64,000 nt of DNA from an uncultured Candidatus Saccharibacteria bacterium (GTDB taxonomy: Bacteria; Patescibacteriota; Minisyncoccia; Phycocordibacterales; SBAW01), in NCBI GenBank assembly GCA_964566795.1, contig CAZMIU010000001.1, positions 479,090-543,089 of the forward strand, in the 5' to 3' direction. Within the stretch, counting starts at the first letter, position 1. Every line of letters starts with the position of its first letter. A program made the translations under genes and the position numbers. Below, one piece after another: positions 22,258 to 41,969 of this stretch. The notes under the pieces were generated by a model. That model saw only the letters and a program-made list of their open reading frames with translations. It had not been told where the DNA came from and searched no databases.

Positions 22258-22290
22258 CGAAAAACTCCGGCATGAGCCGGAGTTTTTACT
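22258..22290. terminator. bidirectional intrinsic terminator
   Basis: aaaaactccggcatgagccggagttttt. Confidence 0.75.
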
Positions 22291-23589: not shown

Positions 23590-25488
23590 ATGAACCCGCA
23601 TGCTGGATTAAACACTGCACAACAGGATGCGACTAAATCAATACATGGACCACTGTTGGTGCTGGCTGGGGCCGGCGCAGGCAAGACCAAGGTCATTGCC
23701 CACCGGATTTTGGAGATTGTAAGGCAGGGGGCGGCCCCGCAAGAGGTTCTGGCTATCACCTTTACCAACAAAGCGGCGGGGGAAATGCGCGAGAGGGTGG
23801 TCGGGCTCCTCAAAGAGCACGGTCATGGGGGCTCCGGAGCGCCATTTGTATCCACCTTTCACTCCCTGGGACTCTCTATTATTAAGGAGCATGCCAAGCT
23901 CCTCGGGTACAGGCGCGCGCCGGCTATATATGACCGGGCCGACTGCTTGAGCGAGATTAAGGCAGCGCTCAAGGCCATAGGCGAGGTTGAGTTTGAGCCC
24001 CGGATGGTCCTGGGGGCAATCTCGCGCGCCAAAGGCGACGGCCTTACACTCGGGGCCTACAGCGAGCGGGCGAGCAACTTTAGAGAGCGAGCTATTGCAA
24101 CCGCCTGGAACCTCTACGAGCAGGCGCTAAAAAAGGATGGCGCTGTAGACTTTGACGACCTTTTGCTTAAGGCGGTCGAACTGCTCACACAACACCCAGA
24201 GATCCGCGCTGCCTACCACAAGCGCTGGCGCTATGTACATATAGATGAGTATCAGGACACCAATATTATCCAGGACCGCTTGGCCGACTTGTTGGTAGGG
24301 CCGGAGCGCAACATCTGTGTGGTGGGCGACCCCGACCAGACCATTTATGGATGGCGCGGTGCCAAGATAGAAAATATTTTGCACTTTGAGCGAAAATATA
24401 AAGACGCGAAGGTAGTGACCTTGGAGGAAAACTACCGCTCGAGCAAAAATATTTTGGACGCGGCAAATAATCTTATTGCCAACAACCCAAACCGCCCCGA
24501 AAAAAACCTCAGCACATCGCGCGGACCGGGAGAGCAGCTCTCCTTATATATGGCAGGAGACGGGGGAGACGAGGCACTGTTTGTGGCACGAAAAATTGGC
24601 GAGCTCAGAGACGAGGGGGTATCGTGCGAGAACATTGCGGTGCTGTACCGCGCCAACTTCCAGTCGCGCGCCATAGAGGAGAAGTTGCTCGACAACTCTA
24701 TCCCGTATCAAGTGCTTGGCACGCGCTTTTTTGAGCGCAAGGAAGTTAAGGATGTGTTGTCATTTATACGCGCCGCTACCAGTGAGACTCCGGCCGACCT
24801 GGGCCGCGTTATAGACACCATGCCGGGTATGGGCAAGGTGACCAAGCTCAAGATTTTGTCGGGCCAAGAGTCGGCGCTGCCGGCCAAAATGCGTGAGCGT
24901 GTGTCTGGTATGCGTGCTCTGCTTAAAAAAATACAGACAAGCACGGACACCATGCCGCCATCGCAGCTGGTGCGGATGGCGGTCGTTGATAGTGGGATTG
25001 AAAAGACTCTCAAAGAGGACAAACTCGAGGGCGGCGAGCGCCTGGAGAACCTGGCCGAGCTGGTCTCCTTGGCATCGCGCTACGACAAACTCCCGCCGCC
25101 GCAGGGATTGGAGATGTTTTTGGAGAGCGCCGCACTTGCGAGCGACCAGGACGAGATTAAAGATACCGAGAGTAAAGTGCGTCTTATGACCGTGCACGCG
25201 GCCAAGGGGCTCGAGTACGCATATGTGTTTATTGTGGGGCTTGAGGAAGGGCTCTTCCCGTACTCACGCGAGGATGATGCAAAAAACAGCATCGAGGAGG
25301 AGCGCCGGCTTATGTATGTCGCCCTTACCCGTGCCAAGAAAAAGCTCTATCTCTCATTTGCTATGATGCGCACGGTGTTTGGCAACCTCGACATGCGCCA
25401 AGCCTCGTCATTTTTGGAGGAATTGCCGGGTGGGCTTATACTCGCCGAGACCCCGGAGCGGCTGGGCAAAACAATATACTTAGACTGA
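23590..25488 (+). CDS. pcrA: ATP-dependent DNA helicase UvrD/PcrA family (short, 632 aa)
   Basis: Superfamily-1 helicase motifs (AGAGAGKT, DEYQDTN, YRS, VHAAKGLEY). Confidence 0.9.
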   Translation: MNPHAGLNTAQQDATKSIHGPLLVLAGAGAGKTKVIAHRILEIVRQGAAPQEVLAITFTNKAAGEMRERVVGLLKEHGHGGSGAPFVSTFHSLGLSIIKEHAKLLGYRRAPAIYDRADCLSEIKAALKAIGEVEFEPRMVLGAISRAKGDGLTLGAYSERASNFRERAIATAWNLYEQALKKDGAVDFDDLLLKAVELLTQHPEIRAAYHKRWRYVHIDEYQDTNIIQDRLADLLVGPERNICVVGDPDQTIYGWRGAKIENILHFERKYKDAKVVTLEENYRSSKNILDAANNLIANNPNRPEKNLSTSRGPGEQLSLYMAGDGGDEALFVARKIGELRDEGVSCENIAVLYRANFQSRAIEEKLLDNSIPYQVLGTRFFERKEVKDVLSFIRAATSETPADLGRVIDTMPGMGKVTKLKILSGQESALPAKMRERVSGMRALLKKIQTSTDTMPPSQLVRMAVVDSGIEKTLKEDKLEGGERLENLAELVSLASRYDKLPPPQGLEMFLESAALASDQDEIKDTESKVRLMTVHAAKGLEYAYVFIVGLEEGLFPYSREDDAKNSIEEERRLMYVALTRAKKKLYLSFAMMRTVFGNLDMRQASSFLEELPGGLILAETPERLGKTIYLD

Positions 25489-26216
25489 TGCTTAAGAAGA
25501 AATCACTCGGGCAGCATTTTCTGAATAATAAGAGCCACCTTAACGCGGTGGCTGATGCTGCGGATATCAAAGCGGGGGAGACCGTGATAGAGATTGGCCC
25601 GGGCGAGGGCGCGCTTACAGCGGTGCTCCTGGAGAGGGGAGCCAGCGTGATAGCACTGGAGAAAGACGCGCGGCTTATAGATGTGCTCAAGGAAAAATTT
25701 AGGGGCCAGGACTTTGAGGTCATAGAGGGCGATGCGCTGGATTTCGATACAGAAGGGCACCTTCTGCATGCAGAAGGTGCCCTTCTGTCATACAAAGTGG
25801 TGGGTAATGTGCCGTACTACATTACCGGTGCTTTGTTTAAAAAGTTTTTAAGCGGCACAAAGCAACCCTCTACACTCGTATTTTTAGTGCAAAAGGAGGT
25901 CGCTGAGCGCATCGCCAAAGAAAAGAAAGAGTCCATACTCTCGCTGTCTGTTAAAGCGTACGGGCATCCGAAGTATATAAAGACAGTCCCGGCGGGAGCG
26001 TTTGTACCGCCGCCCAAGGTAGACTCGGCCATACTTCTTGTCTCTGATATCTCCCGCAAAAACTTTAAAAACAAAAAACACGAGGAGACCTTTTTCGAGC
26101 TCATTAAAAAAGCATTCGGCCAGAAGCGCAAAATGCTGCGCGCCACGATAGGTATTGACTCGAGCAAAAGGCCAGAAGACCTCTCACTCAGTGAGTGGCT
26201 CAAACTTTCTTTATAA
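25488..26216 (+). CDS. rsmA: 16S rRNA (adenine1518/1519-N6)-dimethyltransferase
   Basis: [18 protein letters not shown] and NVPYYIT motifs. ATGA overlap with the upstream gene's stop. Confidence 0.9.
25750..25787. repeat. Palindromic element copy 2: perfect 38-nt palindrome cagaagggcaccttctgcatgcagaaggtgcccttctg inside rsmA
   Basis: Seen in sequence. Shares its 17-nt arms with the copy at 124..163. In-frame, encoding [13 protein letters not shown]. Confidence 0.7.
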
Positions 26217-27245
26217 CGGCGTAAGTGAGGAGCCGGTTATGGGTGTGATAAGCCCGCGGCTCGGTATCGGTACACACGCAGTGCCTACATATATCCAGCA
26301 CGATGGAGTAATAGGCTCGTAAATTCCCTTAGTGGCGATCGCTGGCAGAGGGAGGTTGTGCCAATTAAATGCCTCGGTACCAAACACATAGTCGAGTGTA
26401 AGGTTGGTAGTGATATGCACCTGCGGCAGGAAAACAAACATCTGGGTTACCACTGGCGTACAGGTACACACAGGTATGACTGTTGCAACATAACCTCCAA
26501 ACGGCAACCCGAGCGCCGCCTGCGCAGTCTCGCCCACAAAGAATGTGCTGATGGTTGAGAGCGAGGTCTTAAAGAACGCCATAACCGGACCGCCCGCCTC
26601 TGCCTGCTTCTTTTTAAAGAATTCCTGCTCCTGCTCATAAAATTTGTCCAGTGTCTTTTGGGCGTCCGGAGTAATTTTGCGGATCTCCTTCTCAACTGCC
26701 GCGATCATGTCCTGAGATTCGCCGCGGTCCTTGAGACCCTTCTTTACATCTGCGATATACATTTCTATACGCTCATCCAAAGACGGCATCTTAAACGCAG
26801 ACGACACAGAGGTATCTACCTGAGCTACTGGGGCAGATGGACTGCTGGCAGTGGGGGTGTAGGAGGCCACTGAGGAGGAGGCCCCACCCACCGTGGCCGC
26901 AGACACCTTCTCCAGCTGGGCGCGGGTGGCCGGGCCCACAAAGCCGGTAGGAGCGGTCAGGCCGCCGGGAGCCAGAACCTCTTGAAAGTACTTGGCTTGG
27001 AACTTTTTAACCGCCTCAAAGGTCTTTGCACCAAAGTACGTCGTCTCCTGGCCCGGAGAGCCGGCGCCAGTCTCGGCAACTTTGGTGTCTGCGGAGGCAT
27101 TGAGCACCTGCTGGAGCGTTATCACATCAAAACCGGAGTCACCCATGCGCAGGTTGGTGCCAAAGGTGTAGGCAACCGCAGCAAAGGGTGCCATGAGAGC
27201 GCCTATCATGAGTGCTACACGAGCAACAAGAGATACCTTCTGCAT
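26211..27245 (-). CDS. secreted protein with peptidoglycan-binding (PG_binding_1-like) domain
   Basis: Signal peptide, then a [15 protein letters not shown]...[20 protein letters not shown]-binding motif. C-terminal Cys/Pro-rich region of unknown function. Confidence 0.65.
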
Positions 27246-27263
27246 ACTTTCATTATATACTTG

Positions 27264-28151
27264 ATGGCAATGAGCCCGCGCCATTACCTGCCGTCAACAC
27301 AGTTTTTGGTCATTGTGGCGTCTCTTGTAATCTCGGGTTCGGCAGTTGCGGGGGCGCAGTACTTTGTCTCATCCAAAGACACATCGGGCACGCTTACAGC
27401 ACGCGACACACAGACAGCAGATAGTGGGTGGGAGCAGTCCTTAACCGACATACAGGCACAAAGTGGGATTAACCTACCCGACGCCCCAGACCCAAACGCA
27501 GTCCAAAACCTGCTGGCGCAGGCCCAGAGTAACAATCTCACCGACAGCATAGGGAGGGGCATTTTGGTGCGCATCACGACGGCGGGGGTACAGGGGTTAG
27601 GAGACGATATACCCACTCAAGACGGCATTATCTCGGCAGCAAGCCAGCAGATTAACGCTTCATCCAAGCAGGCAGCCAGCACCCCCGTGGTACAGGTAGA
27701 GGCAACCTCTGACACTATGCGCGCTTTTGGAAACGCGGTCATGGCTGTCATGACCAGGCACCCCAAAGCCAGCTTTAATGAGACTGTTGGAATACTCGCC
27801 AAGGCAACAGACACCCGCGACCCAAAGCCCCTGGCCGACTTAGCCGCGATAGGGCAGGAGTATAAGGTTTTGGCAGACGAGCTGTCCTTGATACCCACCC
27901 CAAAAACCATCGCTCCGCTATATCAGCGCGCGGTCTCTAACATGAATACGATAAGCACCCTATACGGGGAGCTGGGCACGGTGGTAAGTGACCCAGTGCG
28001 CGGGCTTGCCGCACTGCAGCAATACCAGCAACTTGTGTCAGAAACGAGCGGCGTGTTCACAAATATGGCTCAGATGCTCAAGAATGGCGGTATACTTTTT
28101 AGTAAGGACGAGCCGGGAAGCGCGTGGGAGCTTTTCCTGTCCGCATCCTAA
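27264..28151 (+). CDS. hypothetical membrane-anchored protein
   Basis: N-terminal TM anchor. The first ~94 codons of the ORF track overlap the divergent gene and are rejected. Confidence 0.55.
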
Positions 28152-28169
28152 ACGCCCGTACTTATTGTC

Positions 28170-30287
28170 ATGCCCAGGAAGATACTTTTTATAATCATCG
28201 GCGCACTGCTCTTCCTGGCCCTGTTAGCGCTCCTGTGGCTTTGGTTTATAAACCGCACACCCGACACCGAACCGGGTTCTCCAAGCGGTTTTGGCACTTC
28301 AAGTGACCGCGGCACCGGCACAAACACCGCCGGCACAGGAGGCAACACAGAGGGCTCGCTAAACCAAGAGGCAGCGGCCGACTACAACGTTACGCAGACC
28401 CCAGACGGCTACCTTATTAGTACGGCAGGAGGGTTGGGCGCCATAGCGCCGGGTACCTACCAGGTTAAAAAGGGGGGCGCCATAGTAGGAACCTATAAGC
28501 TCGACTCAAACGGTGTAGGCAAGTACAACCTGACCGGCGGCAACCTGCCGTCTGGGACATATACCTTTACGCCTTTTGTGTTGGGTAACACGGGCATAGG
28601 CGGGTCTATAAACACAGGTGGTGGCATCGATACTGGAGGAGGCATACCGCCTGGCGGCGCGATTGATACCGGCGGAGGTATTACTACCCCGGACACAAAT
28701 GGGGACAACACCACACCCCCGGAGGGAGCACTCTCAGGTGCATGGGTAGGCAGCAGCATATCCCAGCGTATATTTAGCCCAAGCGATATAGCAGAGATAA
28801 CCAACCCGGGTACTGTGGGCGGCACTCCGCTTATATCGACCACCCCGCAACCGGCAAGCGTAAACTCTTCGGGGCTCATTATCGGCGCTACTGCCGCAGC
28901 ATGTTTGGCACAATGGGTGGCAAACCAGGTTGCGGGCTCGGTTGCGTTTCTTGACCCGGTTATCGCAACAAGCCTCTTTACCGATGTGCCGTCTCTCGAC
29001 AAATCTGCGGCAAAACAGCGCACCTCACAGAGCGTCATCACCTGCATTGTCAAAACAATCGCGCAGGCTGCGATCGACCAGATCACCCGCAGTATTGTCG
29101 GATGGATTAACTCCGGCTTTAACGGACAGCCTTCGTTTGTCACCAACTTTAACCAATACTTTGCCAACGTGGCCGACCAGGCGGCGGGGGAGTTTATCAA
29201 GGGCTCGGCGCTCTCGTTTTTGTGTTCGCCATTTTCGGCACAGATAAAAATCGCGATCGCGCAGAGTTATGCCAACCGCAACTCCGCGGCCTCCTGTTCG
29301 CTCACCAAGGTAACAAACAACGTTAACGGGTTTTTGCGCGGAGCATGGAGCAACGGCGGGTGGGGCAGCATGCTGCAGATGACCACGATGCCGGTTAATA
29401 ACCGCTACGGCGCCTACGCCTACGGCGAGATAAGCCTTAAGGGCTACACCGCCAATGCGCAAAATGTGGCAAATCGCAACATAAGTCCGGGAGGGTTCAT
29501 TGCTGTGCAAAAATGCAAAGATAGTCCACTTAACATTGCTATGGGTCCAGGACAGGGCACTGCCCCAAAAAACTGTGAGACCACGACTCCGGGCCAAGTT
29601 GTGCAAGACTCGCTCAAAACCAGCTTTGACTCATCTATCAACCAGTTGCAGGTGGCACAAAACATCAATGAGATTATCAGTGCGCTTGTAAACCAGCTCA
29701 TACTCAAATCGCTCTATGGCGGTTTGGCCAATGCAAACACCGGTGTGACGAACCCGCTTGCGCCGGCAGTAGACCAGGCTGCAAGCGCACAGGCCCAGGC
29801 TCTGCTCACGAGCCTGCAGGCAAGCGCCACGGCGGCGGTACAGTTTGCCACCGTCAAGCAGGGGAGCGCGAGTGATATACAACAGGTGCAAAACAGCTTT
29901 AATACTGCATTTAACTGCTGGGAGACCGCCGCGACATCTACCGCACTCTCGGCCGACCTCAGGGCAACAGCCTCACAAAATGCCGCGGCGGCAGACGCAC
30001 AGATTGATCAGCTCCAGACACGGGTTGAGCTGTATAACGGCGATATTACTCGCGCCAACACCTCGCTCTCTGTCATACAAAACCTGCAGTCGCAGGTGAT
30101 GTTTGCCGCAACACCGGAGGATGTGCAAGCTGCAACCATTGCTGTACAAGCCGCAACACCATCTCTTATCGGAGCAGCTGATGTAACAACCGCTCAGCAG
30201 GATCGCACTGCACTCCAAACACAGCTGACCGCAACCAACAGCCAAGCCCAGGCGAGCCTTAGCCAATGCAGAGCGTTTGGAGCATAA
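28170..30287 (+). CDS. large secreted/membrane-anchored protein with Gly-rich GGGIDTGGG repeats (705 aa), T4SS-like locus component
   Basis: N-terminal TM, degenerate Gly-rich repeats, long Ala/Gln-rich helical C-terminus. Confidence 0.7.
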   Translation: MPRKILFIIIGALLFLALLALLWLWFINRTPDTEPGSPSGFGTSSDRGTGTNTAGTGGNTEGSLNQEAAADYNVTQTPDGYLISTAGGLGAIAPGTYQVKKGGAIVGTYKLDSNGVGKYNLTGGNLPSGTYTFTPFVLGNTGIGGSINTGGGIDTGGGIPPGGAIDTGGGITTPDTNGDNTTPPEGALSGAWVGSSISQRIFSPSDIAEITNPGTVGGTPLISTTPQPASVNSSGLIIGATAAACLAQWVANQVAGSVAFLDPVIATSLFTDVPSLDKSAAKQRTSQSVITCIVKTIAQAAIDQITRSIVGWINSGFNGQPSFVTNFNQYFANVADQAAGEFIKGSALSFLCSPFSAQIKIAIAQSYANRNSAASCSLTKVTNNVNGFLRGAWSNGGWGSMLQMTTMPVNNRYGAYAYGEISLKGYTANAQNVANRNISPGGFIAVQKCKDSPLNIAMGPGQGTAPKNCETTTPGQVVQDSLKTSFDSSINQLQVAQNINEIISALVNQLILKSLYGGLANANTGVTNPLAPAVDQAASAQAQALLTSLQASATAAVQFATVKQGSASDIQQVQNSFNTAFNCWETAATSTALSADLRATASQNAAAADAQIDQLQTRVELYNGDITRANTSLSVIQNLQSQVMFAATPEDVQAATIAVQAATPSLIGAADVTTAQQDRTALQTQLTATNSQAQASLSQCRAFGA

Positions 30288-33019
30288 CCACCTTGAACCC
30301 GACCACTTTAAAACTCAAAAAAATATTTAGGGGCGCCGCACGCGGGGTCTCTGCTGTGTTGTTGTTTACGGTGGTTTGCTCAATATTTCTGCAAGCACCG
30401 TCTGTTCCAGTTGCTTACGCACAAGGAGTACCACCCCCCGCTGCGACTATATCTGATGCATCTGTCAGATCACTCAACGATCTGTATAGGATCCATGGTG
30501 TCAGTGCTACGTGTGTTGCAACCCCCTCCACCTGCTCTGCGGCAGACACAAACATACTCACGACCAAGTTTGGCTTTGGTCCTGCGTGCATGTATGGAGC
30601 TACAAACCCAGAGGCGTGTACAGCCCAAGAGGCCCAGGCAAAATCAAGCGTACTAGGAGCGGTGGCTCGTGTGGCAAATCTCGCCACCAGTCTGGGTAGC
30701 AATGCAACAAACCAACTGGCCAACACTCCACAGGGCCAGGCCGCACTTACCGCTGCAACACAGGCAACAGCTAAAGCTGGGGCAGGGTCACCCCCACAAG
30801 GGTTGGGCTGCGGCATAAGCACCAACTTTGACGCGGGGGTATGTATCTCAAACATTGTCTACGTGTTTACGGTGGGGCTGGGCTCGGGGCTCGCCTATGT
30901 GGGCGGGTTTATGTTTGACATCACGGTGGCGCTCTCTCTAAACAGTGCTGCGTATGCGCTCGACTTCCTCTCGGCCGGCTGGACCACGGCGCGCGATCTC
31001 GCCAACATGGCCTTCATCCTCATTTTGGTCTACATCGCGTTTACCATTATGTTTAGGGCGGAGACAGCGCGCACCATGCAGATGTTGGCGTTGGTTATCT
31101 TTATTGCGCTGATCATCAACTTCAGCTTCTTCTTTACGCGTCTGGTGATAGACGTGGGCAACATACTGGCGGTACAGTTTTATAACTCGATAAGCGCGCC
31201 CAGCATGGCGGGTACCTTTGCCACCACCAACAGCAACACGGGTACACTTGCCGGTATAGCCACGGGCGCGGCAAACAGCCTTGGTTCGCAGGACGTGTTT
31301 AAAAACACCAAGGACCTGACCGCCAGCATCATGCAGGCGCTCAATATCCAGGAGTTGTTTAATGACAACAACTTTAAGAAGTTTGCCCAGGACTCAAGCT
31401 TTGGATCAAAGTTCATCATCCTCTCGTTCCTCTATATCGCCATTGGCGCCTGCTACTTTATCTTGGCGGCCATGTTTTTTGCCGTGGGCGTCAAGTTTTT
31501 GGTGCGCATCGTGGTGCTTTGGTTCTTGATCATCGCCTCGCCACTGGCGTTTGTGGCCAAGGCTATACCGGGACGCCCCAATGTCTCGGGGCTGTATGAC
31601 CAGTGGCAACACGAGCTTGTTTCGCACGCTTTTTACCCGGCATTCTTCCTGTTTATCTTCTTCTTTATATCGACGATTATGTCGAGCCTCGGCAGCGGCA
31701 CCGGCATCCTGGGCGGTCTTGCCTCGGACCTCAGCAAACTTGCGGCCAACGACCAGTTGGGAGGGTTTATCTTTATCGCCAGCTCGGTTGCCAACGTGGG
31801 CATCCGCCTGGGCTTTGTGGTCGCTATGCTCTACATAGCTCTCAAAGCATCGGAGCAGATGGGTGTTCGCGGCGCTCAGTTTGCAAACAAGGTCACTACG
31901 TACGCCTTTGGACAGACAGGCAAACTCGCATCTGCCCCAATCGGCTTTTTGGGTAGGAATACTGTGGGTAGGTATGTTGGAGCCCCATTGGCTAATACGG
32001 CCAAGAAGTTTGAAAACAGGGCCCTCCTGAGCAACAGTAGGATTGCCCGTGCCGGATGGAAAGGACTTGCCACGTCTACTGGCGTAACCGGCAATAAGTT
32101 GGGTAAGGCAACATATGACCCACGCAACGCCCCCGGCGCAAGCGTACTTAAAAAAGCGGTAGAGAAGGTCACTGGCCCAACAGTCAATGTTGGCAAACCT
32201 GCCGAGGGAGGCTTTATGGCACAAGCCAAAGCACGCGCTGACAGGATCAAACAGGAACAAGCGGCACGTTCAGCTCTACTGCGTGATGGAGAGACTAAGG
32301 AGCTTGTTAAACAATTGGCAGACAAGTCTCAGCGCCACGATGCCCTAGAAGCAAAAGAAAAAATAGCGCCTCTTAACCCTGCTGAAGTACAGGAGAAGCA
32401 AACTCTTAAGACAGACATCAGCAGGATGGCGAATACTCTAAATAGTCTTGGAAAACGTGAGATCGAGAGTGTAAAGGCCGATGATATACAAAAAGTTCTC
32501 AAGCACGCAAAAGAGGGGGTAGTAAAGAAAGTGGAGGACAGCGACAAATTTAACGAAAAAGAGAAAGCAGAGGTCCGTGAAAAGCATACGGAACAGATGT
32601 CTATCAAGGAGCAGGTAACAAACCAGAAAAAACTTGAAGACCTTGGCAAGAAGAGCCTCGATAATTCTCAGGAAATTATAAAAGAGTTGAGGCATGTACA
32701 AGAAATATTGCAGAAGAATGGCGGTATGTCTGCAAGCTCATTCAAAAATCTGTCGAGGGCAACAACAGCAGGTAATACTGTGTCCCCAACAGTATTAGAT
32801 GATGCACATAAAGAACTGCGAAATCAGTTTATCGTTGTTAATACACGCCTTAAGGATGCAATAAAGAACAAAGATGACGCCAAGAAGTTTGAAGCAGAAA
32901 TCAGCAGGGATAATATTCTTAAAGCTCAGGATCATATAAAGAAACTTAAAGAACACGTAAAGGATATACCTGCCAATATGGGCGGAGCTCCAAATACTCA
33001 AGAATTCTTAGTGGCATAA
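30266..33019 (+). CDS. VirB6/TrbL-like polytopic membrane protein with long K/E-rich coiled-coil tail (917 aa)
   Basis: Signal peptide, Cys-containing extracytoplasmic domain, 6-7 TM helices, lysine-rich C-terminal coiled coil. Topology typical of VirB6/PrgH-class proteins. Assignment is by architecture only. Confidence 0.7.
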   Translation: MQSVWSITTLNPTTLKLKKIFRGAARGVSAVLLFTVVCSIFLQAPSVPVAYAQGVPPPAATISDASVRSLNDLYRIHGVSATCVATPSTCSAADTNILTTKFGFGPACMYGATNPEACTAQEAQAKSSVLGAVARVANLATSLGSNATNQLANTPQGQAALTAATQATAKAGAGSPPQGLGCGISTNFDAGVCISNIVYVFTVGLGSGLAYVGGFMFDITVALSLNSAAYALDFLSAGWTTARDLANMAFILILVYIAFTIMFRAETARTMQMLALVIFIALIINFSFFFTRLVIDVGNILAVQFYNSISAPSMAGTFATTNSNTGTLAGIATGAANSLGSQDVFKNTKDLTASIMQALNIQELFNDNNFKKFAQDSSFGSKFIILSFLYIAIGACYFILAAMFFAVGVKFLVRIVVLWFLIIASPLAFVAKAIPGRPNVSGLYDQWQHELVSHAFYPAFFLFIFFFISTIMSSLGSGTGILGGLASDLSKLAANDQLGGFIFIASSVANVGIRLGFVVAMLYIALKASEQMGVRGAQFANKVTTYAFGQTGKLASAPIGFLGRNTVGRYVGAPLANTAKKFENRALLSNSRIARAGWKGLATSTGVTGNKLGKATYDPRNAPGASVLKKAVEKVTGPTVNVGKPAEGGFMAQAKARADRIKQEQAARSALLRDGETKELVKQLADKSQRHDALEAKEKIAPLNPAEVQEKQTLKTDISRMANTLNSLGKREIESVKADDIQKVLKHAKEGVVKKVEDSDKFNEKEKAEVREKHTEQMSIKEQVTNQKKLEDLGKKSLDNSQEIIKELRHVQEILQKNGGMSASSFKNLSRATTAGNTVSPTVLDDAHKELRNQFIVVNTRLKDAIKNKDDAKKFEAEISRDNILKAQDHIKKLKEHVKDIPANMGGAPNTQEFLVA

Positions 33020-33028
33020 TGTAAACAT

Positions 33029-33670
33029 ATGGCGCGAAAAACATATTCTGATGAAGAGATACAAAAGCGCATTGATCAGTTGTCTGAGGAAGCAGCTGAC
33101 TTTCTCTACAGCCCCGATATGGGGGTTTTGGTAAAGCATATTTCAGACGCCCACAAGCTGCATATAGACCAAATGTCGCTCCTGGAGGCTGAAGTGGGGG
33201 AGCTTATGCTCGGTCTCACTGAGCCCATGGAATTTGTTCCGAATCTTATGGACACACTCCATATAGACAAAGAAACCGCTGACGCTGTTGCAAAAGACGT
33301 AAATGATCAACTCATGCAAAAAATGAGAGGCCTTATGGGGGCACCGAGCGCTCAAACAGAATCATCTATCGTGATGCCTTCATCTAAGCCTATTGAGACT
33401 CCGCCTGCTCCTGTTGCTATACGTACTCCAGCTCCGGCAGCACCTATTGTGCCTCCTGTGGCACAAACTCCGGCTGTGGCGCCTAAACCTGCTCTAGACT
33501 TGCATGCCGCAGACGCCATGCTCTCCCAAAAACAGGTGAGTACCTCCGCAAGCGCCACCGTGCCTCCACCAGCAGCGCCCGCAGCCGCACCGGCGCCCGC
33601 AAAACCCGCACCAAGCCCAGCACAACCGCAAAACTATAAAGCAGACCCGTATCGAGAACCTGTTGAATAA
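33029..33670 (+). CDS. hypothetical protein with Pro/Ala-rich C-terminal half
   Basis: ORF in cluster orientation; low-complexity PAPAAP repeats. Confidence 0.55.
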   Translation: MARKTYSDEEIQKRIDQLSEEAADFLYSPDMGVLVKHISDAHKLHIDQMSLLEAEVGELMLGLTEPMEFVPNLMDTLHIDKETADAVAKDVNDQLMQKMRGLMGAPSAQTESSIVMPSSKPIETPPAPVAIRTPAPAAPIVPPVAQTPAVAPKPALDLHAADAMLSQKQVSTSASATVPPPAAPAAAPAPAKPAPSPAQPQNYKADPYREPVE

Positions 33671-33703
33671 GCGAGGAGCGAATAGGCTGTATAATTACAG
33701 CAC

Positions 33704-34156
33704 ATGGCTCAGTACCAAGTACCCCAATTTATCGAGGTTGAGGACAAGATCTTCGGACCTCTGACCATCAAGCAGTTTGTCTACCTCGCCGGGGCAGGGG
33801 GGCTCGCGCTTATCTGCTTTACCTTGCTACCACTCTTCCTTGCATTGCCGCTTGGCGGCTTGGCTGTCGCTATCGGAGCGGCGTTTGCGTTTTATCAGGT
33901 CAACGGCAGGCCGCTTATTGTCGCGGCAGAGCACGGGTTTAGCTACCTCTTGGGCCACAAGCTCTACCTCTGGAAGCAGCGCCAGGCCCCAAACACCCCG
34001 GTTGTCGTAACAAAAGAGGCGACAGCCACTCCGGGCGTTATATCGGTCCCCAGGCTTAGCCAAAGCAGGCTCAAAGACCTGTCGTGGTCACTTAATATCA
34101 AAGACCAGGAACCGCCTCAAGAAGAGGCCAACACGCCGCGCGGCCTGCAACTATAA
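33704..34156 (+). CDS. PrgI/VirB3-like small membrane protein of type IV secretion systems
   Basis: N-terminal IEVEDKIFGPLTIKQFVYL followed by two TM helices. Resembles the PrgI family encoded just upstream of VirB4 in Gram-positive T4SS. Confidence 0.65.
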   Translation: MAQYQVPQFIEVEDKIFGPLTIKQFVYLAGAGGLALICFTLLPLFLALPLGGLAVAIGAAFAFYQVNGRPLIVAAEHGFSYLLGHKLYLWKQRQAPNTPVVVTKEATATPGVISVPRLSQSRLKDLSWSLNIKDQEPPQEEANTPRGLQL

Positions 34157-34158
34157 CC

Positions 34159-34815
34159 ATGGCATCTACCACCGCATCACAAGCCAAAGCAACACAGGAG
34201 TTCGTACCTATACGGGAGGTACGCAACGGCATCGTGATACTCAAAGACGGGTCACTGCGCGCACTCCTTATGGCCTCGTCCATTAACCTGGCACTGAAGT
34301 CTCAGGATGAGCAGCAGGCTATCATTGGGCAGTTTCAAAATTTTCTGAACTCGCTGGAGTTTACGGCGCAGTTTTTTGTCCAGAGCCGCGACCTCGACAT
34401 CCGCCCCTACATCGCACTCCTTGAGGACCGCTACCAAAAGGAGCTTGACGACCTTATGCGTATCCAGATACGCGAGTATATAGCGTTTATCAAGGACTTT
34501 ACCGAACGCGCAAACATCATGAGTAAGAACTTCTTTATCGTGGTGCCTTACGACCCGTCACTCGCGGCCCGCGGCGGGGGACTGAGCTCTATACTCCCGG
34601 GCTCCGGAGCAACCGGCGCCACCATGACAGACGAGCAGTTCGAGCAGTACCGCACACAGCTTGAGCAGCGCGTCTCAGTCATCGAGCAGGGGTTGGTGCG
34701 CACAGGCGTGCGCATTGTGCAGTTGGGCACCGAGGAGGTCATTGAGCTCTTCTACAAGCTCTTTAATCCGGGCGAGCTTGAAAAGCCTCTCCAGGTACAG
34801 CAGCTTAAGCAGTAG
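34159..34815 (+). CDS. VirB4/TrsE-like T4SS ATPase, N-terminal fragment (ends at in-frame TAG)
   Basis: CagE/TrbE/VirB4 N-domain similarity (GIVILKDGSLRALLMASSINLALKSQDEQQ). Same reading frame as 34825..36639, separated only by TAG at 34813..34815. Confidence 0.7.
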   Translation: MASTTASQAKATQEFVPIREVRNGIVILKDGSLRALLMASSINLALKSQDEQQAIIGQFQNFLNSLEFTAQFFVQSRDLDIRPYIALLEDRYQKELDDLMRIQIREYIAFIKDFTERANIMSKNFFIVVPYDPSLAARGGGLSSILPGSGATGATMTDEQFEQYRTQLEQRVSVIEQGLVRTGVRIVQLGTEEVIELFYKLFNPGELEKPLQVQQLKQ

Positions 34816-34824
34816 TATACGCAT

Positions 34825-36639
34825 ATGGCACTCCTCGACTTCCTTACATCCAAAAAGTCTCCCGCAAGCGCACCGGTGGCGCCGATTTTGCCCCAAGAGA
34901 TTTACAAGCAGGGCGTGCTTGAGCTCCAGGATGTTATCGCGCCGTCGGCGCTCAAGATAACGCCGCGCGAGATTAACCTGGGCGACAAGATAGCGCGCAC
35001 ATTCTTTGTCATGTCGTATCCGCGTATCCTCACAGACTCGTGGTTTTCGCCCATCATAAACCTCGACCGTGTGCTCGACATATCGGTATTTATCCACCCG
35101 ATAGACTCGGCAGACATACTCAAAAAGTTCCAAAAGAAGGTAGCCGAGGTCCAGAGCCAGATTATGGCAAGAGAGGAGAAGGGGCTCGTGCGCGACCCGG
35201 TGCTCGATACCGCCTACCGCGATCTTGAGGACCTGCGCGACCAGCTGCAGCAGGCCCAGGAAAAGCTCTTTGATGTGGGCGTCTATATAACCATTTATGG
35301 CGCCTCGGTAGAGGAGCTTGATAAAGCCGAGAGCGAGATTAAGTCCATGCTCGAGTCGAGGCTTGTGTATGTAAAACCGGCGCTCTTCCAGCAGGAGCAG
35401 GGATTCCGCTCTGTGCTGCCGTTGGGCCACGATGAGCTCAGCGTGCTCTCCAAACTCAACTCCTCCCCGCTGTCCTCCATATTCCCGTTTGTGTCCTTTG
35501 ACCTTACCTCTGACAAAGGCATTCTCTACGGCGTGAACCGACACAATGCCTCTTTGGTGCTGTTTGACCGCTTTTCGCTTGAGAACTACAACTCGGTGGT
35601 GTTTGCCAAGTCGGGCTCCGGCAAAAGCTACGCCACCAAGCTCGAGATTTTGCGCACGCTCATGTTTGATACGGAGGTTATTGTGATAGATCCGGAGCGC
35701 GAGTACGAGTTTCTGAGTCAGGCTGTGGGTGGGCGCTACTTTAATATCTCCCTTAACTCCGAGCACCACATAAACCCGTTTGACCTGGCGCCGCCGCGCG
35801 AGGATGAGTCGTCGGCCGATGTGCTGCGCTCCAACATCGTGGCGCTTGTGGGGATGTTCCGCATTATGCTCGGGGGGCTGTCCCCGGAGGAGGATGCCAT
35901 TATAGACAAGGCTATTACCGAGACCTACGCGCTTAAGGATATAACCATAGACTCAAACTTTGCCGAGATTGAGCCGCCGCTCCTGTCGGACTTCGAGCTG
36001 GTGCTCTCGGGCATGCAGGGCTCGGAGTCATTGGTGCAGCGCTTAAGCAAGTACACCAAGGGTACCTGGGCCGGGTTTATCAACCAACCGACCAACGTCG
36101 ACCTTAACAAAAAGTTTGTCGTGTTCTCGGTGCGCGACATGGAGGACGACCTCAAGCCCGTGGCGATGTACCTCATTACGCACTATATATGGAATGCGGT
36201 GCGCAAAACCCTCAAAAAGCGCCTACTGGTCATAGACGAGGCCTGGTGGATGATGAAAAGCGAGGACACGGCCTCCTTCCTCTACGGCATGGCCAAGCGC
36301 GGCCGCAAGTACTACCTGGGGCTTGCGACCATTACCCAGGACGTGGATGACTTCCTCAAGTCGCCCTACGGATTGCCCATGATAACCAACTCCTCCATCC
36401 AGCTCTTGCTCAAGCAGTCGCCCACCACCATAGACACGCTGCAAAAGACCTTTAACCTCTCAGAAGAGGAAAAATACCTGCTACTGGAGTCGGATGTGGG
36501 GGAGGGGATATTCTTTGCGGGCCTCAAGCACGTGGCTATTAAGGTGATAGCCTCATACACCGAGGACCAGATTATCACCTCCGACCCGTCTCAGGTGTTG
36601 GCATTGCGCAAGCAGCGCGCAGAAGCGGCGGTACAATAG
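34825..36639 (+). CDS. VirB4/TrsE-like T4SS ATPase, C-terminal ATPase part
   Basis: Walker A GSGKS, Walker B LLVIDEAW, VirB4 C-terminal motifs. No SD in front of its ATG. Confidence 0.8.
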   Translation: MALLDFLTSKKSPASAPVAPILPQEIYKQGVLELQDVIAPSALKITPREINLGDKIARTFFVMSYPRILTDSWFSPIINLDRVLDISVFIHPIDSADILKKFQKKVAEVQSQIMAREEKGLVRDPVLDTAYRDLEDLRDQLQQAQEKLFDVGVYITIYGASVEELDKAESEIKSMLESRLVYVKPALFQQEQGFRSVLPLGHDELSVLSKLNSSPLSSIFPFVSFDLTSDKGILYGVNRHNASLVLFDRFSLENYNSVVFAKSGSGKSYATKLEILRTLMFDTEVIVIDPEREYEFLSQAVGGRYFNISLNSEHHINPFDLAPPREDESSADVLRSNIVALVGMFRIMLGGLSPEEDAIIDKAITETYALKDITIDSNFAEIEPPLLSDFELVLSGMQGSESLVQRLSKYTKGTWAGFINQPTNVDLNKKFVVFSVRDMEDDLKPVAMYLITHYIWNAVRKTLKKRLLVIDEAWWMMKSEDTASFLYGMAKRGRKYYLGLATITQDVDDFLKSPYGLPMITNSSIQLLLKQSPTTIDTLQKTFNLSEEEKYLLLESDVGEGIFFAGLKHVAIKVIASYTEDQIITSDPSQVLALRKQRAEAAVQ

Positions 36640-36645
36640 GAGTAC

Positions 36646-37317
36646 ATGAACGTGACGCTGCGGATATTCGCGGGTTTTATAGACCTCCTGCAATTTGTCT
36701 TTTTTGTGGTGTTTTTGGCGTTCCAGGTTATGACGCCATACGGAGGGGCGGCTATCGGTGGAGTTGCGGGCGCGTATGTTTGCTGGAGCATGTCGGATGG
36801 TATCGTAAACGGTATTGTAAACGGAGCGGCATGCGCGTTGGGTATAGGAGCAGTGGGAGGTATAGTGAGCGCGATTGCAACCCCCGTTGGCATGGCCATA
36901 GACGTGGCCATAAGCGCCACGTTTGGCACACTGCTTTTGTTGTGTATGTGGGTGACGGGGCGTTTTTACCTCATGCCTGTTGCTTTGGGGTTTTCGGGCG
37001 AGCTCCTGCCGGGCATTAACGCGTTTGTGCCGGGGTGGAGCCTGCTTGTGCACCGCTGTATACAGCAGCACAAGCTACAGGAGCAGGGCGTGGGCAGGGT
37101 TGGGCGCACCATAAGCCTGCTTGGCAGTATGGGGAGTGTAGTCCCTGGCGCCGCAGTTGCTACAAAGGCGCTTAAGCCCGCTCTTGCTGTGGCAGGCATG
37201 GCACAGAGGGCTATAGCACCCAGAGACTCGCTAACACGCACGCCGCTTAAAAACTTTGACGGCATCAAGGCCTCGAACGACAACGCCCTAAGAAACACCT
37301 ATGCTAAAGCTGCGTAA
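36646..37317 (+). CDS. polytopic membrane protein (Gly-rich TM helices), T4SS-like locus
   Basis: SD AGGAG 3 nt before ATG. 5-6 predicted TM helices. Confidence 0.65.
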   Translation: MNVTLRIFAGFIDLLQFVFFVVFLAFQVMTPYGGAAIGGVAGAYVCWSMSDGIVNGIVNGAACALGIGAVGGIVSAIATPVGMAIDVAISATFGTLLLLCMWVTGRFYLMPVALGFSGELLPGINAFVPGWSLLVHRCIQQHKLQEQGVGRVGRTISLLGSMGSVVPGAAVATKALKPALAVAGMAQRAIAPRDSLTRTPLKNFDGIKASNDNALRNTYAKAA

Positions 37318-38314
37318 CCTCACACTGCTTATCGCGTTTTTGATGCCAACGTTGGCCTATGCGCAGTTTTTGCCTGAGCCTATCCAATACATTATCTCTC
37401 CTGAGGTACCGGGGCCCGGCGAGCAGGTAACCATCGAGGCACAGGGTGTTGGAGCGTTTTTGGGTGATGCCAAGATCACCTGGCAGGAGGGTGGCAAAAC
37501 TGTAAGCACGGGTGTGGGCGCACGCACCTACAGCTTTATTGCGGGCGGTGTCGGGAGCGTCACCACCATTAAGGTAGACATCGTGTCGCAAACAAACGGC
37601 TCGTTTACAAAAACGTTTGTATTCAGACCCTCTACCGTCAACCTGGTCTGGGAGGCAAACACATCGGCTCCGCCGCTCTACGCCGGCAAAACCCTCTACT
37701 CCGGAGGCTCGCAGCTAAAGGTGGTCGCATTCCCCAACGTGGTCATAAACGGCTCGCGTGTGGCCCCAGAGAGCCTCTCCTACCAGTGGACACGCGTCGA
37801 CCAGGCATTGCCGGCTCAGTCCGGGCAGGGGCGCTATGTTCTTGATATTGATGGCGACCAATTACAGCCTAGCGAGGATATTGGGGTAAAAGTCTACTTT
37901 GGTGCGGCGCTTGTGGCACAAGGCGGCATATCGGTGCCCGCAGTGGCGCCCGCAGTGCGCCTGTACGAGCGCGACGCACTGCGCGGCACGCTCACCGACG
38001 CGGCCCTGCCCTCGGGCATCTCTCTTACCAAAAGGGAGATAACCATAGCGGCGCAGCCATACTTTTTTGCCAGGACGGCGGCCGAGAGCGGGGCACTTTC
38101 ATACGCGTGGAATTTGGACGGCAATGAGATAGTGGGCCCCGACTCTGCACGCGGCCTACTGACACTCAGGCAAACCGGCAGCGGGGCGGGTGAGGCGCAG
38201 CTTGCTGTAGACATACAAAACAGCATGGACGACCAGCTGGTACAGGCAGCCAACACGCTGCTTGTCATACTCTTTGGCGGCTCAGCATCCGGCACATCAC
38301 TCTTTGGCCTATGA
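37301..38314 (+). CDS. secreted hypothetical protein (signal peptide), T4SS-like locus
   Basis: Signal peptide MLKLRNLTLLIAFLMPTLAYAQ. 17-nt overlap with the upstream gene. Confidence 0.65.
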   Translation: MLKLRNLTLLIAFLMPTLAYAQFLPEPIQYIISPEVPGPGEQVTIEAQGVGAFLGDAKITWQEGGKTVSTGVGARTYSFIAGGVGSVTTIKVDIVSQTNGSFTKTFVFRPSTVNLVWEANTSAPPLYAGKTLYSGGSQLKVVAFPNVVINGSRVAPESLSYQWTRVDQALPAQSGQGRYVLDIDGDQLQPSEDIGVKVYFGAALVAQGGISVPAVAPAVRLYERDALRGTLTDAALPSGISLTKREITIAAQPYFFARTAAESGALSYAWNLDGNEIVGPDSARGLLTLRQTGSGAGEAQLAVDIQNSMDDQLVQAANTLLVILFGGSASGTSLFGL

Positions 38315-38976
38315 AACACCTACTCCTCTTAAGTATCGCAGTATGTCTCTTTGCGGGCCCGCTCATGGTGGCTCACGCGCAGACCGCGGGGTTTGTGACA
38401 CCCTCAAACGGTAAAAACCCCAACGTTTTTTGTGCCAATGACGGCAAAGGCTCAAGCTCCTGCACCTATGTGCCGCTCGAGCCCCTGCCGTTTTTGCCAA
38501 ACAAGTATGGGCCCGAGAGCGGATCTATAGGCACATTTATAGGGCAGGGATTTAAGCTCATAATCGGTGCGGGTGCCGTGATAGCCGTTGCCATCATTGT
38601 GCTGGGTGCATTGACATACATGTTCTCTGACGTTGCAGGCAATAAAAAAGATGCGCTTGCACGCATCCGCAACGGCATGTGGGGCATAGTCATACTGCTC
38701 TCGTCCTACCTTATCCTCTATACGATAAACCCGGATCTTGTGACCTTTAACCTAAAACTTACTCCGCTAAACAACTACAACACGACCCCGGGTTCTAGCT
38801 CTGGTGGAACGAGGGTCATTGTAACCAACCCAAGCGGCGTAAATATATACAACGGCCCGGATGCATATGAGCAACGCGCAGCCGAAGAGGCTAAATGCCC
38901 AAGCCCCAAGTCTTTGCACGCAACCGGCAGAAATACAGACTCGCGGGGGGAATATGTAACCTATACCTGCATGTAA
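38311..38976 (+). CDS. pilin-like (VirB2/TrbC-like topology) protein: signal peptide plus two TM helices
   Basis: Signal peptide, then hydrophobic helices FKLIIGAGAVIAVAIIVLGALTYMF and MWGIVILLSSYLILYTIN. ATGA overlap with the upstream gene. Confidence 0.6.
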   Translation: MKHLLLLSIAVCLFAGPLMVAHAQTAGFVTPSNGKNPNVFCANDGKGSSSCTYVPLEPLPFLPNKYGPESGSIGTFIGQGFKLIIGAGAVIAVAIIVLGALTYMFSDVAGNKKDALARIRNGMWGIVILLSSYLILYTINPDLVTFNLKLTPLNNYNTTPGSSSGGTRVIVTNPSGVNIYNGPDAYEQRAAEEAKCPSPKSLHATGRNTDSRGEYVTYTCM

Positions 38977-38979
38977 TAT

Positions 38980-40233
38980 ATGCAAAACCTTAACCTAAGA
39001 CTTGTGGCGGAGATAATCGGAGGAGCGCTTTTTGTGCTGCTTGTCATCTGGTTCTTTTTCCTGCGCACGCCGGGGCTCGAGCCTACAGACACCGCGGCCC
39101 AACAAACATTTGGGACAGGGGATGAGCGCACCCAAGTTTCTCCCACCGCAAGCACAGGCAACGACGGCGCCGGGGTGCTTGAGTCTCCCGTGTCCCAACA
39201 GAGGGTATTTAAAATATCCGATGGGCCAGTCGCGGGTGCCACGTTTATGCAGGAGGCCCGACCCACAACAACGGTTGCGCGCTTTGTTATGCAGCAAAAC
39301 GGCCACGTGCTTGACCTGGCGATAGACAGCCCGGGCTCGGTTGCGCGTGCCATTTCAAACACGACTATCCCAGGCGCAAAAGAAGTGGTCTGGGAGATAG
39401 CGAAGGACAACGCGCGCCAAGTTGCACAGGGCGCCATACTGCGCTACATAGACCAAACCATTATCAAGAGCGTGTTGCTTTTGTTCCCCCAGTCTGCAAC
39501 CACAACAAGCGTAGCCGCGGTGCGTATCCAGTTTCTGCCGGACAACATTCTCTCGCTTGCCGCATCCCCCGATGGCGCCTCTGTTGTATACCTGGTTGCA
39601 ACCGCAGCAGGCTCTGACGGCTACGTGGCGCGCGCGGACGGCACCAACCCAAAGAAGCTCTTCTCGCTGCCACTCACACAGATGACCGTGCAGTGGCCAT
39701 CGGTGGGCACTATACTTGCCACGACCAAAGCCGCCACAGGCGTACCTGGGATGGCATTCTCAATCAGTGCGGCATCGGGCGCTGTCTCTCCCATACTGTA
39801 TGCCTCCGGTATTACCACTACAGCCGACTTTGGGTTTAATCAGGTGGTGTACCAAAGCGCCAACGGAGCAACAAGGTTTACATATGCCCACAACACCAAG
39901 ACCAACCTCGACCGGTCGCTCTCGTTTGACCCAATGCCCGACAAGTGTATCTGGAGCCGCCTGCAGACAAGCACCATGTTCTGCGCAGTACCGCTGACCT
40001 ATATTGTCCCGGAGTATAACGACCTGTGGTACCAGGGAGCCGACTCAGCCGCGGACTCTATCGTGTCCTACAACCTCATTACCGGCAAAAATACCGTACT
40101 CGCCACACCGGGCGCAGAGGATGGCGGCACAGCCGCAGACATAGCACACATGGCACTATCAGCAGACGAAAAGTATCTCCTGTTTGTAAAGAAAGGGGAC
40201 AGAAGCCTGTGGGGCGTGCGTTTAGCACGATAG
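38980..40233 (+). CDS. membrane-anchored hypothetical protein (N-terminal TM, large extracytoplasmic domain)
   Basis: N-terminal TM helix. Last gene of the co-directional cluster. Confidence 0.65.
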   Translation: MQNLNLRLVAEIIGGALFVLLVIWFFFLRTPGLEPTDTAAQQTFGTGDERTQVSPTASTGNDGAGVLESPVSQQRVFKISDGPVAGATFMQEARPTTTVARFVMQQNGHVLDLAIDSPGSVARAISNTTIPGAKEVVWEIAKDNARQVAQGAILRYIDQTIIKSVLLLFPQSATTTSVAAVRIQFLPDNILSLAASPDGASVVYLVATAAGSDGYVARADGTNPKKLFSLPLTQMTVQWPSVGTILATTKAATGVPGMAFSISAASGAVSPILYASGITTTADFGFNQVVYQSANGATRFTYAHNTKTNLDRSLSFDPMPDKCIWSRLQTSTMFCAVPLTYIVPEYNDLWYQGADSAADSIVSYNLITGKNTVLATPGAEDGGTAADIAHMALSADEKYLLFVKKGDRSLWGVRLAR

Positions 40234-41900: not shown

Positions 41901-41969
41901 AGGTAACTAGGACAATAGCACAATAAATACAACAAGTACAATAGCACCCAAACGGCCTAAAAACAACTT

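Follow-up and report, generated by a model that had tools for sequence, protein, structure and literature searches.

Patescibacteria are ultra-small bacteria that rely on host cells and contribute much of the diversity of the bacterial domain. Nearly all of them carry a type IV secretion system (T4SS), located close to the origin of replication, and it is essential in the one member that is genetically tractable. The account of Quinonero-Coronel et al. (2025; PMC12102498) places the VirB4 proteins of these organisms in a monophyletic Patescibacteria clade nested within MPF_FATA, in which TrsD is the most frequent neighbour of VirB4, PrgI/VirB3, VirB6 and VirB2-like pilins are encoded nearby, and relaxases are almost absent; in Paceibacteria, that account locates the T4SS close to dnaA, dnaN, ksgA, rnpA and rpmH. 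Wang et al. (2023; PMC10633639) describe the homologous locus of Southlakia epibionticum (SEML1_0004-0019) as essential for epibiotic growth by transposon sequencing, and give its order as VirB6-like, NTF2-like, VirB6-like, PrgI, a 293-aa TrsD-like protein, a 612-aa VirB4, lysozyme, and a six-pilin array. A 2025 FEMS review (PMC12857230) considers the Patescibacteria T4SS unique among monoderms and speculates that it is a conduit for uptake from the host, and a preprint (10.64898/2026.06.21.733656) reports host-RNA feeding by a cultivated relative, together with tubular structures that may be T4SS pili. Here, a cluster of this kind is described from a 64,000-nt stretch (the window) of contig CAZMIU010000001.1, positions 479,090 to 543,089, deposited as an uncultured Candidatus Saccharibacteria bacterium. 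The cluster is best read as a chromosomal, vertically inherited, non-conjugative Patescibacteria T4SS, derived from MPF_FATA and carried by a Paceibacteria (Parcubacteria-type) genome, with a probability of roughly 0.85.

The initial annotation of this DNA had recognized a Gram-positive-style, T4SS-like apparatus, and its VirB4, PrgI, VirB6-like, and pilin assignments hold. The novelty that it implied for the system does not, the system having been described already in 2023-2025 (Wang et al. 2023; Quinonero-Coronel et al. 2025); the cluster is real but is not a new kind, and what the window offers is a clean Paceibacteria example with a defined operon. By open reading frame (ORF) listing and translation, positions 27264-40233 form a compact, co-directional block on the + strand comprising 11 ORFs (g1-g5, g6a, g6b, and g7-g10), with the same coordinates as first proposed for this run of overlapping or near-abutting genes. 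Adjacent ORFs overlap by at most 22 nt and lie at most 33 nt apart, as is usual for genes of a single operon. The divergent gene for a secreted peptidoglycan-binding protein, also noted earlier, is g0. The genes are as follows:

26211-27284, - strand: g0, divergent from the operon, with a PG_binding_1 domain
27264-28151, + strand: g1, 295 aa, first gene of the operon
28170-30287, + strand: g2, 705-aa surface protein
30266-33019, + strand: g3, 917 aa, extended VirB6/TrbL-like polytopic channel protein
33029-33670, + strand: g4, 213 aa, soluble
33704-34156, + strand: g5, PrgI/VirB3-like small membrane protein
34159-34815, + strand: g6a, TrsD-like, 218 aa
34825-36639, + strand: g6b, VirB4 ATPase, 604 aa
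36646-37317, + strand: g7, 223 aa, Gly-rich polytopic membrane protein
37301-38314, + strand: g8, 337 aa, secreted
38311-38976, + strand: g9, VirB2-like T4SS pilin
38980-40233, + strand: g10, 417 aa, membrane-anchored extracytoplasmic protein, last gene of the operon

The g1 ORF can be extended 5' to a TTG at 26982, but the ATG at 27264 is the likelier start, since it gives the protein an N-terminal membrane anchor. The GC content of the block (0.49-0.57) is not distinct from that of its flanks, and a scan for promoters and terminators returned fewer promoter-like sites than were found in shuffled sequence.

At the centre of the operon, VirB4 is encoded in two pieces. A single VirB4 ATPase gene had originally been placed at 34159-36639; the identification as VirB4 stands, and the single gene has given way to two ORFs, g6a and g6b, separated by a TAG at 34813, 9 nt, and a new ATG. 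In Pfam, g6b matches P-loop_TraG (E 1.4e-26) as well as AAA_10 and DUF87, and it carries a Walker A motif (AKSGSGKS, residues 260-267) and a Walker B motif (LLVIDE, residues 467-472). Its alignment to PrgJ of pCF10 (E 2e-45) covers residues 228-772 and, by beginning at residue 228, indicates that g6b lacks exactly the N-terminal domain, while the DUF87 protein of the Geobacillus subterraneus plasmid pGspE55-1 is matched over its full length (29% identity, E 7e-81). With a single genome scanned for each species, close VirB4 relatives turned up in at least 582 species, and the best 80 of these were used for the locus comparisons; across these 80 Patescibacteria species, g6b is 76-93% identical, as opposed to 26-29% for Firmicutes VirB4.

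The preceding ORF, g6a, matches the NCBIfam TrsD/TraD family NF041427 (E 4e-9) and the N-terminal regions of the VirB4_plasma (E 2e-9) and CD1110 (E 2.5e-5) families, in each case under the curated cut-off. Its precomputed annotation is PF26593 (TraC-like), and it is 28% identical (E 1e-23) to the 318-aa protein encoded between PrgI and the VirB4 ATPase on pGspE55-1; a BLASTP comparison of g6a with the N-terminus of PrgJ gave no significant pairwise match. Judging from these similarities, g6a is the N-terminal domain of VirB4 as a separate, TrsD-like polypeptide. In 77 of 77 related loci, the TrsD-like and ATPase pieces are separate ORFs split at one position; in 59 of the 77 they lie in different frames, and the alignment of the ATPase piece begins at an ATG. 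Taken together, these features exclude a pseudogene, a sequencing error, and, given the difference in frame, stop-codon read-through; on this comparison, the split is ancient and conserved. As a side observation, one related locus (L065, 9265-9920) carries its PrgI and TrsD-like genes on the strand opposite the VirB4 ATPase gene, indicating a local inversion.

The other recognizable parts are PrgI, a VirB6-like protein, and a pilin, each at the place where it had first been reported (33704, 30266, and 38311, respectively). The g5 protein has two transmembrane (TM) helices and passes the gathering threshold of Pfam PrgI (PF12666; E 5.1e-10, 40.2 bits against a cut-off of 27). It is 36-63% identical to its counterparts in 76 loci and 31% identical to the PrgI protein of pGspE55-1.

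A signal peptide opens the much larger g3; it is followed by an extracytoplasmic N-terminal region, a membrane domain with a predicted VirB6 fold (residues ~190-560), and a C-terminal coiled-coil tail of ~300 aa rich in lysine and glutamate (K/E). Taken by itself, the VirB6-like protein of the window has no Pfam match above threshold. Among 45 g3 orthologues, TrbL/VirB6 is the top family (8 of 45, best E 1.6e-4), and it is also the precomputed annotation of several database relatives of g3, some of which are titled "type IV secretion system protein". Foldseek comparison of g3 with the PDB placed TrwI/VirB6 chains in the five best positions (probability 1.0, E 0.03-0.2). Assignment of g3 as a VirB6-like channel protein, and with it the polytopic VirB6/TrbL-like protein with a K/E coiled coil of the initial annotation, therefore holds on structural and family-level evidence. 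Profile searches of the PDB with the g3 and pilin families gave no meaningful matches, and hhalign comparisons of these families with PrgH and PrgF of pCF10, respectively, were negative against single-sequence templates, which afford low sensitivity. The start of g3 differs among public gene calls: NCBI and one Logan record have a protein of 738 aa, and a second Logan record has one of 917 aa. The longer form has a signal-peptide-like segment at its N-terminus, and its ORF overlaps the g2 stop; the short form leaves 516 nt uncalled.

The pilin candidate, g9, consists of a signal peptide, two hydrophobic helices (residues ~75-110 and 126-144), and an 80-aa, Cys-containing C-terminal extension, in keeping with the signal peptide and two TM segments noted earlier. 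It falls just under the cut-off of Pfam T4SS_pilin (PF18895; E 4.1e-5, 24 bits against 26.6) and matches the NCBIfam Mbov_0395 pilin-like family at E 4e-4. At the family level, T4SS_pilin is found in 37 of 43 orthologues (best E 2e-10) and TrbC/VirB2 (PF04956) in seven of them. One or two copies of the pilin family adjoin g8 and g10 in 62 loci.

The genomic setting of the cluster is conserved. Every named record among the best 80 VirB4 relatives belongs to the Patescibacteria, or candidate phyla radiation (CPR), including Kaiser-, Adler-, Campbell-, Taylor-, Zambryski-, and Nomurabacteria and Paceibacterota, and ~29 of the 80 were deposited as "uncultured Candidatus Saccharibacteria". In the window, the order is uvrD-ksgA-[cluster]-jag-yidC-rnpA-rpmH-dnaA. 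When all window proteins were compared by tblastn, the order uvrD-ksgA-[cluster]-jag-yidC-dnaA was found to be kept in nearly every related locus with enough flank; in over 50 species the cluster occupies one fixed site, with ksgA on one side and jag-yidC-dnaA on the other. Median identities were 78.5% for the VirB4 ATPase piece (a figure somewhat inflated by the choice of loci on VirB4 similarity), 60.7% for TrsD, 54.3% for DnaA, 49% for UvrD, 44% for KsgA, and 35% for YidC, and the VirB4 piece was more conserved than DnaA in each of the 53 loci having both. Conserved order, a fixed site, recurring families, and high identity together mark the locus as a vertically inherited core feature under strong purifying selection, and not a mobile element. 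With an ATPase conserved more strongly in this lineage than DnaA, the T4SS, nearly universal and essential in the tractable member, is a prime candidate for the host-parasite interface.

Genes for conjugation are missing from the surroundings. No relaxase was found among the ORFs of the 64-kb window (oriT as such was not searched for), and no VirD4/TcpA-type coupling protein, either adjacent to the cluster or farther away within the window. The cluster is bounded by no integrase, relaxase, type IV coupling protein (T4CP), or repeats, and a XerC/D-like gene at 12381-13310 lies 14 kb away. The earlier statements that neither relaxase nor VirD4 is visible and that a classical conjugation system is unlikely are borne out by the housekeeping flanks, the conserved synteny, and the composition of the window.

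Compared with known systems, the cluster is closest to the T4SSs of the Patescibacteria clade, with which it shares a separate TrsD-like gene directly 5' of VirB4, PrgI/VirB3, an extended VirB6, a VirB2-like pilin (PF18895/PF04956), a location near dnaA, ksgA, and rnpA, the core order VirB6-PrgI-TrsD-VirB4, and the lack of a nearby relaxase or T4CP. Unlike S. epibionticum, the window has one pilin gene in place of a six-gene array and no lysozyme or peptidase in its operon, where no NTF2/VirB8-like protein was found either. The accessory set of g1, g2, g4, g7, g8, and the TolB-like g10 is typical of Paceibacteria and is not described in the accessible parts of the published accounts.

Among conjugative systems, the split VirB4 and the order PrgI-TrsD-VirB4 recall the pGO1/pSK41 subclass of MPF_FATA (TrsC-TrsD-TrsE). 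A similar order is seen on pGspE55-1, where PrgI, the 318-aa TrsD-like protein, and the DUF87 ATPase are followed by a 907-aa membrane protein and an M23 peptidase. The PrgI, TrsD-like, and VirB4 ATPase proteins of this plasmid are 28-31% identical to those of the window, and its 907-aa membrane protein is matched only weakly by the g3 family in hhalign (E 1.7e-4, 60 columns). However, MPF_FATA conjugative systems are borne by plasmids or integrative conjugative elements and include a relaxase and a T4CP, whereas the present cluster is chromosomal and syntenic, with neither in 64 kb. Gram-positive conjugation systems also generally lack VirB2-type pilins, according to two accounts (PMC12102498, PMC12857230). 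In the Prg/Pcf system of pCF10, PrgI is likewise followed by VirB4 (PrgJ), but PrgJ is one polypeptide, and the plasmid also encodes PcfC (VirD4), a relaxase, and the PrgB adhesin.

Relative to TrwI/VirB6 of R388 (PDB 7o3v, 8rt9), g3 is three times longer and only 13-14% identical, and it differs in having the N-terminal extracytoplasmic region and the coiled-coil tail; unlike the R388 Trw system, the cluster has no VirB5, VirB7, VirB9, or VirB10. Finally, the Ced and ComB importers work with a minimal set of VirB2-, VirB6-, and VirB4-like proteins and are not known to have a coupling protein or relaxase. In composition, the cluster resembles archaeal Ced and Helicobacter ComB in this minimal recognizable set, and ComB differs in having the outer-membrane core proteins VirB7-10.

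A working model can be drawn from these parts. The TrsD-like and VirB4 pieces would assemble into a hexamer that docks on PrgI and VirB6 at the cytoplasmic membrane and acts as the motor, extracting the pilin and driving its polymerization into a pilus or conduit. The wall-spanning, host-contact part could then be provided by g1, g2 (with its swappable N-terminal module), g8, and the TolB-like g10, all of them anchored extracytoplasmic proteins. Through such a machine, these metabolically reduced cells may carry out contact-dependent exchange with the bacterium that they need as host.

The direction and nature of this exchange admit several accounts. One of them makes the cluster an import machine: with a VirB2-like pilus, VirB6 as the channel, and VirB4 as the motor, it would draw nucleic acids or other macromolecules from the host, and these would be the chief source of nucleotides for a cell unable to make its own. 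In the absence of a T4CP or relaxase from the window, the recognizable complement of VirB2, VirB3, VirB4, and VirB6 is that of a minimal importer, a nutritional role would agree with the very strong purifying selection seen on VirB4, and both the speculation on uptake from the host (PMC12857230) and the RNA feeding and possible T4SS-pilus tubules of the cultivated relative (10.64898/2026.06.21.733656) point in the same direction. However, deletion of comEC in S. epibionticum abolishes transformation and leaves viability unaffected (PMC12857230), and the T4SS must therefore be essential for something other than ComEC-dependent DNA uptake; import independent of ComEC is still compatible with that result, and the import account may be considered possible though doubtful. 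A bolder form of it, in which a Ced-like, ComEC-independent conduit imports host macromolecules and g2, g10, g8, g1, and g7 make up a new wall-spanning, host-docking module without counterpart in known T4SSs, is rather unlikely. Export of effectors onto or into the host, through a distant VirD4-like protein or by a T4CP-independent route as in Bordetella Ptl and Brucella VirB, is another tentative account with modest odds. In place of DNA transfer, Wang et al. (PMC10633639) raise the possibility of protein export, VirD4-like genes are distant from virB4 in most Patescibacteria genomes (PMC12102498), and effector systems lacking a T4CP do exist (PMC12102498, PMC12857230). Nevertheless, no candidate effector, chaperone, or T4CP was seen in the 64-kb window, and the T4CP homologue of S. 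epibionticum is reported in PMC12102498 to be non-essential, in contrast to the T4SS genes.

An organelle for adhesion only, with VirB4 powering a VirB2-type pilus and a surface adhesin complex and no substrate being translocated, would explain why the conserved pilin adjoins secreted or anchored proteins and why relatives of g2 carry adhesin-type PKD, Big_2, or discoidin modules in their variable N-terminus. Yet type IV pili already give adhesion in the Patescibacteria studied (PMC12102498 and PMC12857230), and a conserved VirB6 channel would hardly be needed for mere adhesion; this account is improbable. Least probable by far, and very nearly negligible, is an integrated conjugative element or its decayed remnant, with the stop inside VirB4 as the mark of a pseudogene. 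All recognizable parts do descend from conjugation machinery, and an in-frame TAG does lie between the two VirB4 pieces of the window. Against this stand the identical position of the split in 77 of 77 loci, the separate ATGs, the mostly different frames, and the strong conservation of both halves, together with the lack of bounding mobility genes or repeats and a GC content like that of the flanks; an integrated conjugative element is effectively excluded by a location that stays fixed and syntenic, amid housekeeping genes, in over 50 species. An anti-phage defence island was also considered and rejected.

A chromosomal, vertically inherited, non-conjugative Patescibacteria T4SS is accordingly the preferred reading, and several points weigh against it. 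The relaxase and T4CP negatives cover 64 kb of a genome of roughly 590 kb, and VirD4-like genes lie far from virB4 in many Patescibacteria (PMC12102498). The essentiality data come from another class, Saccharimonadia, and placement in the published Patescibacteria VirB4 clade is by best hits only. Both g3 and g9 of the window miss Pfam thresholds, the Foldseek matches of g3 have E values of 0.03 or worse, and the conservation figure for VirB4 is inflated to the extent mentioned above. No VirB8-like or VirB1-like protein was found in the operon by hhalign or PDB profiles, methods of low sensitivity here. Finally, the pilus, its assembly, and the role in host interaction are features that we infer.

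The remaining value of the locus, apart from the unusually strong conservation of its ATPase, lies in six accessory proteins without assigned family: g1, g2, g4, g7, g8, and g10. Their families recur in 50-77 of the 80 related species, making them concrete targets for complex structure prediction, cryo-electron tomography, and genetics. Searches of Pfam, NCBIfam, PHROGs, and PADLOC with the unassigned proteins returned nothing usable except the peptidoglycan-binding region of g0. The initial annotation had spoken of several uncharacterized proteins; six families do stay without assignment and are kept in relatives, and the description is now qualified for g10, where a TolB-like beta-propeller is the only hint of a fold among the six.

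Of these proteins, g1 has a single N-terminal membrane anchor and no match in Pfam, NCBIfam, or PHROGs, nor in the PDB with profiles of 17 or 61 sequences, and its family was negative against PrgL of pCF10 by hhalign (again a single-sequence template, with low sensitivity). Iterated hidden Markov model (HMM) searches located the family at the same position in 53 loci, at times as a tandem duplicate. In a Kaiserbacteria-like subset (L016, L018, L023, L024, L026, L032, L033, L035, L037, L038, L039, and L059, at ~1500-4300), the g1 family is tandem-duplicated and the g7 family is undetected, which suggests lineage-specific remodelling of the accessory set.

Besides its N-terminal anchor, the 705-aa g2 protein has a variable region rich in glycine, a conserved, mainly helical core that is rich in cysteine (residues ~290-520), and a C-terminal coiled coil rich in glutamine and alanine; the stop of its gene overlaps the start of g3. 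Its family was found in 58 loci by iterated HMM searches and comprises 6174 clusters at 50% identity (E<=1e-3). Relatives carry PKD, Big_2, Ig-like, or F5/8-type-C (discoidin) modules in the variable N-terminal part, and these adhesin-type modules suggest a surface or host-binding role; a host-contact or tip component is proposed. The core has no Pfam domain and no meaningful match in a PDB profile search, the AlphaFold2 model of this region was poor (predicted local distance difference test 61.6) and gave no fold match in Foldseek, and the low-sensitivity, single-template hhalign comparison of the family with PrgK of pCF10 was negative.

Less can be said of g4 and g7. The former combines a conserved helical N-terminal domain with a Pro/Ala-rich tail, has no hydrophobic segment or TM helix, and is probably cytoplasmic; family searches gave only low-complexity noise, and iterated HMM searches place its family between the VirB6-like and PrgI genes in 69 loci. 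The latter has no family or PDB match, and its own family occupies the same position in 50 loci by the same method. A comparison of the g7 and pilin families was negative, and the two are not related.

The two large extracytoplasmic proteins of the 3' half, g8 and g10, were traced by tblastn in 77 loci (at 25-54% identity) and 65 loci, respectively, and comparison of the one with the other was negative. In g8, a signal peptide is followed by conserved W, G, and P residues with a period of ~100 aa, and its profile has one weak match to the Ig-like domains of T4 Hoc (E 2e-4). Pairwise similarity among the repeats of the window protein is not significant, leaving the notion of three Ig-like domains weakly supported; g8 may possibly contain tandem Ig-like domains. 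In g10, an N-terminal hydrophobic segment spans residues 3-34, and a 45-sequence profile matches TolB chains over ~125-140 residues (best E 2.1e-5), although g10 alone has no Pfam match.

Outside the operon proper, g0 is a secreted or anchored protein with PG_binding_1 (E 1.8e-6) and a Cys-containing C-terminal domain, and its PHROGs matches are confined to the peptidoglycan-binding region of endolysins. A homologue occupies the same position in only 15 of the 80 related loci, and g0 is a facultative neighbour rather than a core part. In one locus (L077, 13854-15386), a g0-like peptidoglycan-binding protein is also encoded on the + strand within the operon, between the pilin and g10.

Other genes of the window that bear on the cluster or had been connected with it are the following:

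22286-23389, - strand: LysM-M23 peptidase (Peptidase_M23 2.2e-30, LysM 5.4e-19)
25488-26216: ksgA, near the cluster
41470-41763: rnpA, near the cluster
42513-43850: dnaA, near the cluster
44099-45196: dnaN, near the cluster
51404-53089, - strand: GspE/PilB-type ATPase (T2SSE 1e-113, MshEN domain)

The LysM-M23 peptidase had been described as lying just upstream; it is in fact 2.8 kb upstream, with uvrD/pcrA and ksgA between it and the operon. A peptidase of this type is found in the same relative place wherever the flank reaches far enough (L002, L036, L044, L047, and L077), and M23/LysM proteins are counted among the VirB1-type matches near virB4 in Paceibacteria in PMC12102498. It is possible that this protein serves as a VirB1-like, wall-remodelling partner. 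The PilB/GspE ATPase, correctly noted as an orphan, is genuine, isolated, and separate from the T4SS cluster; it lies among RuvB, YebC, TsaE, and PolA, with no pilus or type II secretion system partner genes alongside. The long form of this ORF, from a GTG at 53377, probably over-extends the N-terminus.

The other ORFs of the window (at least 150-170 aa) are housekeeping genes encoding trigger factor, ClpP, RNase Y, PNPase, a ComM-like protein, an HhH-GPD glycosylase, UvrD/PcrA, KsgA, Jag, YidC, RnpA, DnaA, DnaN, PBP1A, TyrRS, YebC, RuvB, PolA, RuvA, and others. There are eight tRNAs, and a search of Rfam found tRNAs only. Two further + strand ORFs look conserved: one at 17019-18362 encodes a Pro/Ala-rich protein of 447 aa with one membrane segment and no Pfam match, and another at 21392-22231 encodes 279 aa with only a sub-threshold match to DUF1402.

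A minor observation concerns small insertions at the trsD-virB4 junction. In four species, a cassette of ~450-500 nt sits exactly between the TrsD-like gene and virB4 (L015, 4312-4757; L019, 9512-10001; L045, 2972-3420; and L067, 9501-10001), and, on reading by eye, it holds an ORF for a four-helix-bundle protein of 23S-rRNA-IVP-like type and has inverted repeats at the ends. About a dozen others (L012, L021, L027, L033, L035, L037, L041, L050, L058, L061, L071, and L077) carry ORF-less inserts of 47-170 nt at the same junction, several of them with terminal inverted repeats, and five of the six inserts that were folded form near-perfect stems of 18-20 bp (z -3.4 to -4.9). These look like full and empty palindromic elements of the intervening-sequence type that target the trsD-virB4 site, and the palindromes are possibly substrates of RNase III. 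The junction in the window itself measures 9 nt only. A cassette of the same kind is nonetheless present elsewhere in the window, in the presumed origin region: a 23S_rRNA_IVP gene (41970-42335, - strand; PF05635, E 1.4e-22) lies between rpmH/rnpA and dnaA, with one arm of a perfect inverted repeat of 13 nt on either side (41920-41932 and 42373-42385).

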